Assembly: GCA_964628025.1 (NCBI GenBank)
Contig: CAZVLL010000012.1
Location: forward strand, 12,784 to 76,783
Length of the DNA stretch: 64,000 bases
Direction: 5' to 3'
From: an uncultured Syntrophaceae bacterium
Lineage (GTDB): Bacteria > Desulfobacterota > Syntrophia > Syntrophales > UBA2192
Shown here: positions 37,955-43,157 of the stretch, piece after piece
Numbering within the stretch: the stretch's first letter is position 1
Layout: every line of letters begins with the position of its first letter
Made by a program: the position numbers and the translations under genes
Notes under the pieces: model-generated
Told to the model about the DNA's origin: nothing
The model's database searches: none
The model's input: the letters and a program-made list of their open reading frames with translations, nothing else

Positions 37955-38929
37955 ATGTCGATCAATCGCTGGCTGTTGAAAGGACTCATGCTCTTTACGC
38001 TGTTTTTCTTTCTTTGCTTTTTAATCCCTGATGATGCCTTCTCCCGAGCGGGCGGAGGAACCTCTTCAGGCAGCCGGGGATCCAGGACATACTCGGCACC
38101 GAGGACAACGACGTCTCCCACACCCACGTCACCCGGACCATCGCAGGCCGTTTCTCCGTCGCCAACGGCTCCTGTGCCCCAGCCGGCCCCCCAGTACAGC
38201 TTCTGGCGAAGCATGGCCGGCGGCGTCGTCGGAGGCCTCGTGGGCGGTATGTTGTTCCGGAGTCTCGGTTTCGGGGCCCCCGACGGAGGCGGCATGTTCG
38301 GCGGGATCGGAATTTTCGAGATCATCCTGATCGGAGGCATCCTGTATTTCATCTACCGGTTTGTCAAGAAACGCCGCGAGCAGGCAGCCACGGCCGGGGC
38401 CTATTCCCAGGGCCAGTCCGTGGACACCGCTTCCCCGTCCTATGCCCCGTCTGGGGGAAGCCCCGCTCCGGAATCCAATGATGTCGAGCGCGGAATTTCG
38501 CACGTCCGCCAGATGGATGCGGCGTTCGACGAAAAGCGTTTCACCGATGCCTGCATGGATGTTTTTTTCCAGATCCAGGGTGCCTGGTCGAACCGCGACA
38601 TGTCCACGGCAAGGAATGTCCTGACCGAGGAGATGTACGGCATCCTCTCCGGTGACGCCCAGAAAATGAAGGCGGAAAAGAAATTCAACCGACTGGAGAA
38701 CATTGCCGTCCGCTCTATCGACATCACAGAGGCCTGGCAGGAGGGGGGGCAGGATTATATCACCGTGAAATTCTATGCCAACCTGCTGGACTACACGGTG
38801 GATGAATCCACAAAGCAGGTGCTGTCGGGGAGCAGGACGGAGCCCGTGAAATTTGAAGAGTACTGGACCTTCACGAGAACCGTCGGGAGCAACCCCTGGA
38901 AGCTGTCGGCCATTCAGCAGGCACAATGA
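37955..38929 (+). CDS. Tim44/TimA domain-containing membrane protein
   Basis: A.ARAGGGTSSGSRGSRT start, Gly-rich TM region, C-terminal FEEYWTFTR...W.LSAIQQ. Confidence 0.93.
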   Translation: MSINRWLLKGLMLFTLFFFLCFLIPDDAFSRAGGGTSSGSRGSRTYSAPRTTTSPTPTSPGPSQAVSPSPTAPVPQPAPQYSFWRSMAGGVVGGLVGGMLFRSLGFGAPDGGGMFGGIGIFEIILIGGILYFIYRFVKKRREQAATAGAYSQGQSVDTASPSYAPSGGSPAPESNDVERGISHVRQMDAAFDEKRFTDACMDVFFQIQGAWSNRDMSTARNVLTEEMYGILSGDAQKMKAEKKFNRLENIAVRSIDITEAWQEGGQDYITVKFYANLLDYTVDESTKQVLSGSRTEPVKFEEYWTFTRTVGSNPWKLSAIQQAQ

Positions 38930-38964: not shown

Positions 38965-39005
38965 AAAAGAAAGAGGCCCTTGCGGATTTCTGCAAGGGCC
39001 TTTCC
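38965..39005. terminator. Bidirectional terminator between convergent genes
   Basis: AAAGAAAG-AGGCCCTTGC-GGATTTCT-GCAAGGGCCT-TTCC. Confidence 0.75.
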
Positions 39006-39049: not shown

Positions 39050-39451
39050 TCAGTGTGTCTGCTTGATATGGGTACGGGCCCATTCGATGAGTTCCTGGAT
39101 GGTCGTGCCCATGGAGAAGAACTGGACGATCCCGACTTCCTTGAGCCGGGGGATGTCTTCATAACTGAGAAACCCGCCCGCCGTCACCCCGATGTCCCGG
39201 GCACCGGCCCTTTCGAGCAGTTCCATGACTTTCCGGATATCGTCGATTTTCGCGCCGGGAAGCGTTGTGATGCCGATATGATCCACATCCTCTTGTATTG
39301 CGGATGACACGATGGCTTCCGGCGTCTGGGTTTCCGTGTAGATGATCTCGAATCCCGACTCCCGGAAAGCCAGTGCAAGCTTCACGACGGAGTTCTCGAA
39401 CCCCTCCCCGAATTTGGCCATGAGAATCCTGACCCTTTTTTCGTGCAGCAT
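39050..39451 (-). CDS. Stand-alone cobalamin-binding domain (methylmalonyl-CoA mutase C-terminal-like) lacking the DxHxxG motif
   Basis: RILMAK.G...FRESGFEIIY...TPEAIVSSAIQEDVDHIG...AGG...L...G...F..GT fold signature; EGFENS replaces DGHDRG. Confidence 0.85.
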   Translation of the reverse strand: MLHEKRVRILMAKFGEGFENSVVKLALAFRESGFEIIYTETQTPEAIVSSAIQEDVDHIGITTLPGAKIDDIRKVMELLERAGARDIGVTAGGFLSYEDIPRLKEVGIVQFFSMGTTIQELIEWARTHIKQTH

Positions 39452-39490
39452 CGGTTCCCCCTTTTTCCTGAGCCCTGTTCCTGCGTCCTG

Positions 39491-39518
39491 TGTATAGAAA
39501 ACCACGGGAGCGTGTCAA
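39491..39518 (-). promoter_or_regulatory. Sigma70-type promoter candidate for the B12-binding-domain gene
   Basis: Minus strand TTGACA-N16-TATACA about 40 nt upstream of the ATG. Confidence 0.55.
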
Positions 39519-39725
39519 GGGAATTAAAAATTTCTGCATAACAGCAGAAGCCGATTGACTTTTTTGTATGTTCCGGCTTATTAACCATCTTTACCTTTGG
39601 GCCGCATCCGTGCCCAGCACCCAATTTGCATGCCTTCCTTTCGGGAGAAGCCTTCGGCATCTGCATTATTTCCCGGGGGACGCAAGGGACGACGGCAACA
39701 CGGAATACCTTGCGGGGTGACCATC

Positions 39726-40943
39726 ATGATCACAGACAACATCTATCTCAGTGAGCTTCTGGGTCGTCCCCTCTTGGACAAGAAAGGGGATGCCATCGGA
39801 AAGATCCGAGACCTCAATGTGGTACCCGGTGACCCATTCCCTTTCGTGGAGGGGCTCTACGTCAAGACCCCCCAAGGGACCGCCTACATTTCGATGAAGG
39901 AGATCAACGTCCTCAACAAGAGGGTTGTCACGATGCGGGGAGATGCCGGAACCATCGTCTACGCGGAGCCCCGGGAGAAGGAAATCCTGATCGCGAAGCA
40001 CATCATGGACAAGCAGATCGTCGATATCAACGGGGTCAAGGTCGTGCGGGTCAATGACGTGCAGCTCGGCCAGGTCAACGATCATTTCGGGATGCTGGCC
40101 ATCGATGTGGGGTTCGGAGGGATCATCCGAAGGCTCGGCTTCGGAAAGGCGCGGAAAGGAACCCTCATCCCCTGGAAGTACGTCACAACGCTGGAGCCGG
40201 GCCTTGACCGCCTCACGCTGACGATGACCCGGAAAAGCCTTGCCGAGATGCACCCCGTCGACATGGCGGAGATCCTCTCCCAGGTATCGATGCAGGAAAG
40301 AACGGCCCTTCTCAGCTCACTGGACGAAGAAACAGCGGGCGATGTGATTGGAGAGCTGGACGAGGAAACGGCGGCCAAGATCATCAGCGAGATGGAACCG
40401 GAAAAAGCCGCCGACGTGCTCGAACAGATGGATCCCGATGAGGCCGCCGACGTTCTTGGCGATCTTCCCGAGAAGAAGGCCGTGGAACTGCTCAGTCGCA
40501 TGGACAAGGAAGAGGCCGAGGAGGTCCGGGAACTCCTCGAGCACGACGAGGATACGGCGGGCGGCCTCATGACAACGGACTACATCTGCTTCCCGCCCGA
40601 CATGTCGGCAGAGGACGTGATGAAGGAGCTGCGGCTCCTGGCTCCCGATATCGAAATGATCTACTACCTCTACGTGGTAGACCGGGAAGAGCATTTGCTC
40701 GGGGTCCTCTCGCTCAAAGACCTGATCCTGGCTTCGCCCGGATCGATGCTCAGCAGCTTCATGGTAACAAACCCCAAGACGGTGCTTGCAACGGAAGACA
40801 AGAAAGAAGTGGCCGAGATGGTCTCGCGCTACAATCTTTATGCCATCCCGGTCGTCGATGAGGAAGATCACATTCTCGGCATCATTACCGTCGACGATGT
40901 GGTGGACATGCTCCTGCCCTCGCCGATCAGAAGGAAACGCTAG
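39726..40943 (+). CDS. Soluble PRC-barrel + MgtE intracellular N-domain + CBS pair protein (no membrane domain)
   Basis: Two PRC barrels, HPVDMAEIL...MDPDEAADVL, EDTAGGLMTTDY, GIITVDDV; ends immediately after the CBS pair. Confidence 0.9.
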   Translation: MITDNIYLSELLGRPLLDKKGDAIGKIRDLNVVPGDPFPFVEGLYVKTPQGTAYISMKEINVLNKRVVTMRGDAGTIVYAEPREKEILIAKHIMDKQIVDINGVKVVRVNDVQLGQVNDHFGMLAIDVGFGGIIRRLGFGKARKGTLIPWKYVTTLEPGLDRLTLTMTRKSLAEMHPVDMAEILSQVSMQERTALLSSLDEETAGDVIGELDEETAAKIISEMEPEKAADVLEQMDPDEAADVLGDLPEKKAVELLSRMDKEEAEEVRELLEHDEDTAGGLMTTDYICFPPDMSAEDVMKELRLLAPDIEMIYYLYVVDREEHLLGVLSLKDLILASPGSMLSSFMVTNPKTVLATEDKKEVAEMVSRYNLYAIPVVDEEDHILGIITVDDVVDMLLPSPIRRKR

Positions 40944-40946
40944 GCC

Positions 40947-42200
40947 ATGCTCAGGTGGCTGAAAACAATCGACCGGAAGAGCCTTCTGTTCTTCTTCAGC
41001 ATCGTCGGGCCGGGAATCATCACGGCCAACGTGGACAACGATGCGGGAGGGATTACTACATATTCCCTTGCGGGGGCTCATTACGGCTACTCCCTTCTCT
41101 GGTCCATGATCCCCATTCTCATCGTCCTGATCCTGATCCAGGACATGGTGGCTCGGCTGGGTGTCGTTACCGGGAAAGGACTTTCCGATCTCATCCGCGA
41201 GAAGTACGGCGTCCGGACCACCGTTTTTACCATGCTGGCCCTCCTCATCACCAACTTCGGCAACATCACCGCCGAGTTCGCGGGGCTTGCCGCAAGCCTG
41301 GAAATATTCGGTATCAGCCGGTATATCTCGGTTCCGCTGGGTGCAGCGGCGGTCTGGTATCTTGTGGTGAAAGGAAATTACCGGATCGTCGAAAAAGTGT
41401 TTCTCTTCGCCTGCACGGTCTATCTTTCCTATATCATCTCCGGGTTCATGGCCAACCCACCCTGGGGAGAGGTCCTGCTGGCAATGGTCAAGCCCACGTT
41501 TCATATGAACACGGACTACCTGATGATGCTGATCGGTGTCGTGGGGACAACGATCGCCCCCTGGATGCAGTTCTATCAGCAGGCATCCATCGTGGAGAAG
41601 GAGATCCGCGTGGAGGACTACCGTTACGTTCGGTGGGATGTGATTGTCGGCTGCATCTTTGCCGTTGTCGTTGCCTTTTTCATCGTCGTGGCCTGCGCGG
41701 CAACGCTCCACGCCAACAACATCCGAATCACCTCCGCCGAAGATGCCGCCGTAGCCCTGGCACCACTGGCAGGCCAGTACGCGAGCATCCTCTTTGCCAT
41801 CGGACTGGCCAACGCCTCTCTTTTTGCGGCGTCCATTCTTCCGCTGAGTACAGCCTATTCCGTCTGCGAAGGGATGGGATGGGAAACAGGCATCGGAAAA
41901 GACTTCCAGGAAGCCCCACAGTTCATGGGTCTCTATACGGGCCTCGTCATCCTGGGCGCGGGGCTCATCCTGATCCCCGGTGCTCCTCTCATCGGGATCA
42001 TGCTGGTCTCCCAGGTCATCAACGGGATCCTTCTTCCCTTCATCTTGATCTTCATTCTCCTTCTGGTAAACAATGAAGAACTGATGGGCTCCCACGTGAA
42101 CAGCCGCTTTTACAACTGGGTTTCCTGGGCATCCGTGCTGGTACTGATTTTTCTCAGCGTTGCCCTGGTGATTCAGCCGATCCTGCAGATATTTGCCTAG
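40947..42200 (+). CDS. NRAMP-family divalent metal transporter, Mg-transporting NRMT-like clade
   Basis: TM1 GPGIITANVDNDAGG (not DPGN), TM6 GTTIAPWMQFY (not ATIMPH); 3 nt after the CBS gene. Confidence 0.88.
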   Translation: MLRWLKTIDRKSLLFFFSIVGPGIITANVDNDAGGITTYSLAGAHYGYSLLWSMIPILIVLILIQDMVARLGVVTGKGLSDLIREKYGVRTTVFTMLALLITNFGNITAEFAGLAASLEIFGISRYISVPLGAAAVWYLVVKGNYRIVEKVFLFACTVYLSYIISGFMANPPWGEVLLAMVKPTFHMNTDYLMMLIGVVGTTIAPWMQFYQQASIVEKEIRVEDYRYVRWDVIVGCIFAVVVAFFIVVACAATLHANNIRITSAEDAAVALAPLAGQYASILFAIGLANASLFAASILPLSTAYSVCEGMGWETGIGKDFQEAPQFMGLYTGLVILGAGLILIPGAPLIGIMLVSQVINGILLPFILIFILLLVNNEELMGSHVNSRFYNWVSWASVLVLIFLSVALVIQPILQIFA

Positions 42201-42248
42201 AATATCCCCGGCCGTGGTATCCGTTACCTCCTGTGCTGAAGGAGTTTC

Positions 42249-43157
42249 ATGAAGCGGGAAAACAAACTTCTCCTGATATTATCTTTCAATGTAAGTCTCA
42301 TGATCCTGGAGATCATCGGGGGACTGATCAGCAACAGCCTAGCCCTCCTCAGCGATGCGGGGCACATGTTGACGGACTCGCTTGCTGTCTTTCTCAGCTA
42401 CATGGCCATCCACTGGACCCGGAAACCGGCGGACCACCGGAAGACGTTCGGCTATCACCGCGCCGAGATCCTCGTCGCCCTGGCCAACGGTGTCGCCCTG
42501 CTCGTCATCGCCGGGTACATCTTCTACGAGGCTGTCCAGCGATTTTTCAGCCCCCAGGAGATCCGGACGGGCGTCCTCCTGGCCATCGCGACCATCGGCC
42601 TGGCGGGGAATCTTTTCGGGCTCTTCATCCTGAGAGGGGAGAGCCATGACAACCTCAATATCCGGAGTGCCTTCTTCCACATCTTGGCCGATACGCTGTC
42701 TTCGGTGGGGGTCATCGTCGGTGGTGTCATCATCTGGTTCACCGGCTGGTATCTCGTCGACTCACTCGTCGGCGTGCTCATCGGGGGCATCGTGCTGAGG
42801 GGTGCCGTCGAACTGATCCGGGAGTCGGGCGAAATCCTGCTCGAGGCCACACCCCGCGACATCGATATTGCGGAGTTACGGCAGGAGGTCGAAAAAATCC
42901 CCGGCGTGAAGGGCCTGCACGACGTCCATATCTGGACGATTGGCTCCGGCCTGCGGGCGCTCAGTGCCCACGTGCTCACCGATGACATCACGACAAGAGA
43001 GAGTCAGGAGATCGCCTGTCTTGTCCGGGCCGTCCTGGGCGGGAAGTACAACATTACCCACACAACCCTCGAAGTGGAGTGCGAGAGTTGCATGGACCGG
43101 GCATGTGACATGATTCTGACCGAGAAGGATTTGGACAACATGCGACCTCGGGGCTAG
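42249..43157 (+). CDS. czcD: Cation diffusion facilitator (CzcD/ZitB-like Zn/Co/Cd efflux)
   Basis: SLALLSDAGHMLTD, TFGYHRAE, LNIRSAFFHILAD, HDVHIW, HTTLEVE. Confidence 0.92.
   Translation: MKRENKLLLILSFNVSLMILEIIGGLISNSLALLSDAGHMLTDSLAVFLSYMAIHWTRKPADHRKTFGYHRAEILVALANGVALLVIAGYIFYEAVQRFFSPQEIRTGVLLAIATIGLAGNLFGLFILRGESHDNLNIRSAFFHILADTLSSVGVIVGGVIIWFTGWYLVDSLVGVLIGGIVLRGAVELIRESGEILLEATPRDIDIAELRQEVEKIPGVKGLHDVHIWTIGSGLRALSAHVLTDDITTRESQEIACLVRAVLGGKYNITHTTLEVECESCMDRACDMILTEKDLDNMRPRG

Follow-up and report, generated by a model that had tools for sequence, protein, structure and literature searches.

B12 reaches acyl-CoA mutases by way of three players, an adenosyltransferase, a G-protein chaperone and the mutase itself, and replacement of the axial histidine cripples AdoCbl mutases. 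The beta chain of Propionibacterium shermanii methylmalonyl-CoA mutase, MutA, is a full-length large-subunit paralog with an inactive, degenerate B12 domain fused to it and no bound cobalamin. The cobalamin signature has been quoted as DxHxxG(41)SxL(26–28)GG (PMC2702500). Base-off domains that are not His-on occur in OxsB, TsrM, TokK and CFeSP, where a non-ligating uncharged or bulky residue fills the lower axial space (PMC13331322). The isolated cobalamin-binding domain of MCM docks on MeaB and stimulates its GTPase 25-fold (PDB 8dpb), and in IcmF the G-protein domain touches the B12 domain through E56, Q75-E76-D77 and strand 55–59 (PMC9974510).

Here we describe a small B12-binding-domain protein encoded in the window, by which we mean the whole 64,000-nucleotide stretch of contig CAZVLL010000012.1 that was analysed, in the genome that we call G000.

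39050–39451 including the stop codon, minus strand: coding sequence of a stand-alone B12-binding-domain paralog of 133 aa (open reading frame list, profile matches and alignments)

The paralog recalls MutA in being a mutase-derived B12-type domain that does without the canonical His ligand and is presumably not itself catalytic; unlike MutA, it stands alone, and its tail-pocket motifs are under strong constraint. Compared with the small subunits of split mutases (HcmB, 4r3u; Aeropyrum pernix MCM, 2yxb; TIGR00640), it has the same length and fold and holds K13, G15, G17, GFEVIYT, QE.VD, G60, L64, GG and F112 in common with them, whereas the loop of its family reads [E/D]-G-[Y/F/H]-[E/D]-x-[A/S], one residue shorter than DxHxxG, a second one-residue deletion lies ahead of QxPE, SxL has become TTLP, H58 and W124 are invariant, and the gene never lies beside a large subunit or MeaB. 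With OxsB, TsrM, TokK and CFeSP the paralog has in common a B12-type Rossmann domain that lacks the DxHxxG His, and theirs is the binding mode that we propose for the Tyr and Phe forms of the family; unlike it, those proteins are large multidomain enzymes from other branches of PF02310 with no close sequence relationship to it, and no radical SAM or methyltransferase partner of the paralog was found. The MCM domain that docks on MeaB resembles the family in its edge strand and its acidic and QED contacts, which appear to be conserved, and differs from it in being an engineered fragment with an intact His loop, as opposed to a natural stand-alone paralog.

Fold, ligand loop and conserved positions

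Profile and fold alike place the paralog in the B12-binding-domain superfamily and in the TIGR00640 subfamily. It scored 44.1 bits against Pfam PF02310 (cut-off 32.1) and 94 bits against NCBIfam TIGR00640, acid_CoA_mut_C (E 7e-27, cut-off 57.45), with model positions 1–130 of 132 covered. The AlphaFold2 model, computed from a 28-sequence alignment (pLDDT 89.6), predicts a five-stranded Rossmann/flavodoxin-like fold that is superposable on solved small subunits, its best matches being HcmB (4r3u_C; TM 0.88, rmsd 1.6 Å) and 2yxb (TM 0.86) at 34–36% identity. CheY-type receivers were only weak fold matches of the model (TM 0.71–0.74), and their features, an acidic pocket following beta1, a phospho-acceptor Asp closing beta3 and conserved Thr/Ser and Lys, were not found in the sequence, which has no Pfam Response_reg match and in which beta3 ends T-T-L-P-G. 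Also absent is the N-terminal four-helix cap, PF02607, of methyltransferase corrinoid proteins and CarH-AerR-type sensors; the 133 aa hold PF02310 only and have no N-terminal extension. Databases label the clade 'methylmalonyl-CoA mutase C-terminal domain' or 'cobalamin-dependent protein', an ESM Atlas search returned generic B12-binding clusters only, and a literature search found no paper on this subfamily.

The peptide quoted in the earlier note, AKFGEGFENSVVKLALAFRESGFEIIY, is found exactly in the translation, and the replacement of DxHxxG by EGFENS in an otherwise conserved domain is borne out by the HMMER alignment to 2yxb and 4r3u HcmB, in which the query reads AKFG-EGFENS and canonical GLDGHDRG becomes G-EGFENS. 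The window protein thereby differs from the canonical loop by a one-residue deletion and by the changes D>E, H>F and G>S, and it lacks the cobalt-ligating His that marks His-on small subunits.

K13-F14-G15-E16-G17-F18-E19-N20-S21: ligand loop that replaces the canonical DxHxxG loop (HMMER alignment)

General features of the loop across the family are the deletion, G17, acidic residues at 16 and 19, and Ala or Ser for the last Gly. Position 18 varies: Tyr in 85 members, Phe in 35, His in 16, and Arg and Gly in one each (n = 138). Although Tyr, Phe or His thus occupies this position in 136 of 138 members, at least 32 switches of state are needed on the tree, and His alone needs 5–11 changes, so that the constraint is 'aromatic' and not 'cobalt ligand'. 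All three states occur within the window's own genus (Phe in the window, Tyr in L009 and others, His in L018 and L019), and the codons for Tyr, Phe and His are neighbours by a single base change. The loss of the cobalt-ligating His claimed for this protein accordingly stands for the window protein, with its F18, and fails as a trait of the family, where His is present in 16 of 138 members, L018 and L019 included; as far as the sequences indicate, 'lost His' fits the window genome and not the family as a whole. At the axial-ligand site of a mutase small-subunit scaffold the clade, whose role is putative, alternates naturally between His, Tyr and Phe, which is unusual.

The remainder of the cobalamin signature has a close counterpart in the paralog, [E]xFxxS(40)TxL(27)GG, with spacings of 40 and 27. 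T62-T63-L64 stands in place of SxL, a conservative change from Ser to Thr, G92-G93 corresponds to GG, and G115-T116 is retained. In the family as a whole T62, G92 and G93 are conserved at 100%, L64 at 99% and T116 at 97%, so the SxL and GG motifs of canonical small subunits are here invariant or nearly so. The putative nucleotide-tail motifs are kept, and the ligand loop appears to be the only part of the signature that has been remodelled. A position-by-position comparison of 137 family members with 109 canonical small subunits gave the following classes.

K13, G15, G17, G33, E35, V36, Y38, T39, P44, Q53, E54, D57, G60, L64, G66, G92, G93, G107, F112: invariants shared by the family and canonical subunits (137 vs 109)
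R20, K23, T43, H68, P96, L103: canonical invariants relaxed in the family (137 vs 109)
L25, F29, I59, T62 (for Ser), P65 (for Ser), T90, A91, F111, T116, W124 (137 vs 109), and also H58: family-specific invariants or fixed switches

Strand periodicity would place H58 on the same face of beta3 as G60, T62 and L64, that is, on the tail-pocket face, deeper in the domain. The IcmF contacts, mapped onto the paralog by motif identity, fall on E35, Q53-E54-D55 and strand 34–38; E35, Q53 and E54 are kept by the family as well as by canonical subunits, and D55 is Asp, Ser or Ala within the family.

Gene, transcription signals and neighbourhoods

The 133-aa reading frame starts at an ATG with AAGGGGGAACCG just before it, and the same Met starts the orthologs. 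A longer frame of 151 aa from a GTG at 39505 was ruled out as the product, since orthologs begin at the Met of the 133-aa form. The signals that surround the gene are as follows.

39456–39463, minus strand: Shine-Dalgarno-like AAGGGGGA, 5 nt upstream of the ATG (read from the sequence)
39491–39518, minus strand: sigma-70-type promoter, with -35 TTGACA at 39518–39513, a 16-nt spacer and -10 TATACA at 39496–39491
38972–39003, both strands: bidirectional intrinsic-terminator hairpin between the convergent Tim44-like gene (plus) and the paralog gene (minus)

An alignment of upstream regions found a G-rich element ahead of the start in all orthologs, and the promoter element CTTGACA...TTTTCTATA(A/C)(A/G) was kept in 18 ortholog loci from the genera g1 and g2. 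This block, CTTGACA...TTTTCTATAAR, is the best-conserved non-coding block upstream of the 18 orthologs of the two genera; the 5' leaders of orthologs differ in length and in sequence. An automatic promoter scan had passed over the element at 39518–39491 because its -10 hexamer ends in A. The hairpin at 38972–39003 is GC-rich and forms 14 pairs on the plus strand and 10 on the minus strand, with T-runs on both sides, and no Rfam match to a riboswitch or other RNA was obtained upstream of the gene at E values up to 1. The earlier reading of a gene with its own promoter and terminator agrees with these findings: TTGACA-16-TATACA on the minus strand is conserved in orthologs of two genera, the 14-bp bidirectional hairpin follows the gene, and the transcription unit reads as monocistronic.

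The convergent Tim44-like gene, to which the hairpin is common, occupies window positions 37955–38929 on the plus strand and encodes 324 aa, with an N-terminus of signal-like or TM-like character, then a long linker rich in Gly, Pro and Ser, and a Tim44-like domain at the C-terminus. On the other side, a cation module of three genes is arranged divergently from the B12-domain gene (window 39720–43157, plus strand). Its first gene (39720–40943) encodes a soluble protein with PRC-barrel, MgtE_N and CBS-pair parts and no membrane domain, its second (40947–42200) an NRAMP-family transporter with the metal-site motifs DNDAGG and TIAPW in place of DPGN and MPH, which we take to resemble the NRAMP-related Mg2+ transporters, and its third (42249–43157) a CDF efflux protein. 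Only in genera g1 and g2 is the module kept back to back with the B12-domain gene.

Clustering of open reading frames at 19 loci and then at 5 more, with about 30 loci examined overall, gave no conserved neighbour beyond lineage-specific synteny, and in 30 or more loci the gene was never beside a mutase large subunit. The synteny takes a different form in each lineage: g1 and g2 have the MgtE_N/CBS-NRAMP-CDF operon, the Desulfosoma/Desulfacinum group has ruvAB, Desulfobacteraceae have RtcB and archease, and the Syntrophobacter group has a histidine kinase. In the Syntrophobacter-type subclade the kinase gene immediately precedes the family gene, on the same strand (L034:8152–9963, L036:8096–9808, L035:11–793). 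Pfam confirmed its GAF, PAS, HisKA and HATPase domains in L034 and L036, and in L035 the kinase was recognised by reading of the sequence only; kinase and family gene could form a lineage-specific operon.

Distribution, selection and the mutase systems of the carriers

A word-indexed search returned 330 relatives of like length, the best 120 of the 330 at 55–93% identity, and the loop change is present in hundreds of independent assemblies. In an exhaustive profile search of 1.84 billion cluster representatives the family formed a compact set of about 11–13 clusters at 50% identity, with the mass of canonical subunits below it, and whole genomes showed the same gap in profile score, with the family at 157 bits or more and canonical subunits at 133 bits or less. 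A maximum-likelihood tree computed with the loop columns omitted separated all 139 family rows from seven canonical small subunits by a branch with an SH-aLRT of 99. Named sources of the family are Syntrophales, Syntrophobacteraceae, Syntrophobacter, Desulfosoma, Desulfacinum and Desulfobacteraceae.

Of 17 genomes from the window's genus, 16 carry an ortholog at 61–92% identity, as do 4 of 4 genomes of genus g2 and also G030, which belongs to the same order as the window's organism and whose copy is near-identical to proteins labelled Syntrophales. At the threshold used, 27 of 29 high-quality relatives had a small-subunit-type match, and outside the ortholog carriers these were only canonical matches at about 40%. 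In an even sample of 401 genomes from the phylum, 10 carried the family, and these belong to five taxonomic families. One genome of this sample, G397, has two family copies (C56:156615–157007 and C34:1037–1402, at 223 and 157 bits) and a canonical small subunit as well.

Pairwise dN/dS against 13 same-genus orthologs was 0.055–0.124, at dS of 0.4–1.4, values that point to strong purifying selection on a functional gene as opposed to decay or a sequencing error. The collection of homologs proposed in the earlier note thus places the substitution in a conserved clade with more than 130 relatives, and it is not unique to this genome.

The G000 genome is 98.9% complete and has a single PF01642 large-subunit match, C9:68745–70433, which lies on a different contig from the paralog, in keeping with the earlier statement that no mutase large subunit is nearby. 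The operon on C9 comprises the large subunit, a canonical small subunit (68317–68721) with 37% identity to the paralog, MeaB (67330–68301) and an adenosyltransferase of CobO type (66605–67162), so the catalytic system is complete without the paralog. Canonical small subunits are encoded with a large subunit, or needed by one that has no other B12 subunit, and neither holds for the paralog. Glutamate mutase E was not found in G000, nor was lysine aminomutase alpha, the latter being a weak negative in that the PF09043 control matched nowhere.

At least one split-mutase large subunit was present in G000 and in each of ten family-bearing genomes (G030, G202, G232, G258, G299, G305, G328, G351, G397 and G018), and family-bearing genomes other than G000 often have two to four PF01642 genes. 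Among the 22 large-subunit matches, those with readable surroundings or coordinates, which are all except G305:C163 at the edge of its contig and two in G299, adjoin a canonical small subunit. The five large-subunit loci that were fetched all have MeaB alongside the large subunit; a canonical GLDGHDRG small subunit was read in L141, L142 and L144, is presumed from an antisense reading frame in L143 and was not seen in the ORF map of L145. The second large subunits of G202, G232, G258, G351 and G397 likewise mostly have a canonical small subunit alongside. An orphan large subunit was for this reason rejected as the partner of the paralog wherever the loci are readable, the large subunits mostly having canonical small subunits of their own.

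A second MeaB paralog of G000 (C18:65–1129) was also rejected as a partner, being present in G022 and G024, which have no family member, and absent from the family-bearing g2 genomes and from G030. Taken together, the genomic searches yielded no partner. This MeaB/ArgK-type GTPase, 39% identical to the MeaB of the mutase operon, heads an operon at G000:C18:65–4523 whose further genes encode a VOC protein resembling methylmalonyl-CoA epimerase, a carboxyltransferase of 511 aa and a decarboxylase membrane subunit that resembles OadB. Contig C18 begins just upstream of the GTPase, and earlier genes of the operon may be missing.

Candidate roles of the paralog

The paralog is probably a B12-handling helper and not an enzyme subunit. 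The specific form of this idea that we favour, tentatively and with somewhat less than even confidence, is an accessory protein that holds or escorts cobamide, binds it base-off without needing the His and may work with MeaB. On this proposal, the small (cobalamin-binding) subunit of acyl-CoA mutases gave rise to a neofunctionalised paralog that stands alone and would still take up cobamide in base-off mode, with the nucleotide tail in the conserved pocket of TxL, GG and GT, and with a cobalt that has no obligatory His and would sit above a planar aromatic residue (Tyr, Phe or His, interchangeably) placed under the corrin by the one-residue-shorter loop. It would hold or escort the cobamide for the B12 enzymes of the cell, the likeliest client being the split mutase together with its MeaB chaperone, for which the docking edge is apparently retained, and it would not act as a catalytic mutase subunit. 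The combination of invariant tail motifs, an aromatic and interchangeable residue at the ligand site and relaxed invariants on the face towards the corrin and the large subunit argues for a base-off cobamide binder without AdoCbl catalysis; a domain without a cofactor would be expected to lose its tail motifs, so their retention favours cobamide binding, and the surviving tail-pocket motifs fit a protein that can bind corrinoid without His. The paralog is unlikely to be catalytic, given that the operon around the single large subunit of G000 is complete and already includes a canonical small subunit. Corrinoid binding, the place of residue 18 beneath the cobalt, the contact with MeaB and the physiological role are all proposals that we infer from comparison of this kind.

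The same descent can be read differently. The paralog derives from mutase small subunits, keeps their fold and has many core positions in common with them, and all ten genomes searched for PF01642, together with G000, hold at least one split-mutase large subunit; it might then be an alternative small subunit that competes with the canonical one, giving an inactive, regulated or retuned mutase, or serving as a decoy, a regulator or a placeholder for the apo large subunit. We regard this as rather unlikely, because each of the five loops that face the corrin and the large subunit has been rewritten to a family-specific sequence, with R20, K23, T43, H68 and P96 relaxed, because the gene never adjoins a large subunit in 30 or more loci, and because split mutases are near-universal in these clades, which makes the co-occurrence uninformative; the general effect of axial His replacement on AdoCbl mutases speaks against it too. 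Slightly less likely still in our judgement is a domain free of corrinoid, its scaffold recruited for another ligand, for protein interaction or for signalling, for example with a histidine kinase as partner. The dispensable ligand His is consistent with such a recruitment, as are H58, a new invariant on the strand that bears TxL, the occurrence of CheY-type receivers among the weaker fold matches and, as a weak hint, the kinase directly upstream in the Syntrophobacter-type subclade (L034, L035 and L036). That adjacency is, however, confined to one subclade of related organisms, the protein has no receiver-type acidic pocket, and the invariant tail motifs TxL, GG and GT would be left without explanation. 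The His18 found in 16 of 138 members, two same-genus orthologs among them, is what a genuine His-on B12 protein would lead one to expect, with Tyr and Phe as a lineage-specific loss of function and the window copy as a decaying gene or a sequencing error, yet this we hold to be highly improbable: the low dN/dS (0.055–0.124), the intact reading frames and the conserved promoters extend to the Phe, Tyr and His forms alike, Tyr and Phe predominate and occur throughout the tree, with Phe forms filling whole well-supported subclades, and the change recurs in hundreds of independent assemblies.

Several points also weigh against the accessory cobamide-holding protein itself. The G, T and L residues of the motifs might have been retained solely to stabilise the fold, the one-residue deletion and the change of G21 to Ala or Ser could stop the loop from approaching the corrin, and the residues of the MeaB edge, which were assigned by motif matching, might be conserved for other reasons. 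No conserved neighbour at the loci examined, and no fusion or riboswitch, connects the gene with B12 metabolism, the distribution of the second MeaB paralog does not match that of the family, and the invariance of H58 is not accounted for by the model. A more detailed version of the accessory role, which we consider unlikely as it stands, would make the paralog a hitherto unrecognised type of cobamide-handling protein, a free-standing B12 'parking' domain, derived from mutase small subunits, that holds the nucleotide tail, caps the corrin with an aromatic residue so as to favour four- or five-coordinate cobalt, docks on MeaB and serves in loading or repair of the split mutase in syntrophic and sulfate-reducing Thermodesulfobacteriota.

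Were the accessory role true, a conserved fourth protein with a transcript of its own, built from the cofactor domain of the mutase itself, would join B12 trafficking as a new element of delivery, storage or regulation, in organisms whose energy metabolism depends on the methylmalonyl-CoA pathway. If instead no corrinoid is bound, the clade would be a case of cofactor-domain recycling, and its annotations as 'cobalamin-dependent protein' would be wrong. The family also offers a natural experiment in which one scaffold accepts any of His, Tyr or Phe at the site of the axial ligand, and which may serve to separate the role of the lower ligand in binding from its role in catalysis.

A search of longer proteins, which is weak evidence, gave no fusion proteins of the family and just two canonical B12 domains fused to carboxyltransferase. 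In these two proteins, P0122 and P0123, a canonical His-on B12-binding domain is fused N-terminally to acyl-CoA carboxyltransferase domains (PF01039/PF03255), an unusual architecture that brings the cofactor domain of mutases together with the carboxylase step of the methylmalonyl-CoA pathway.
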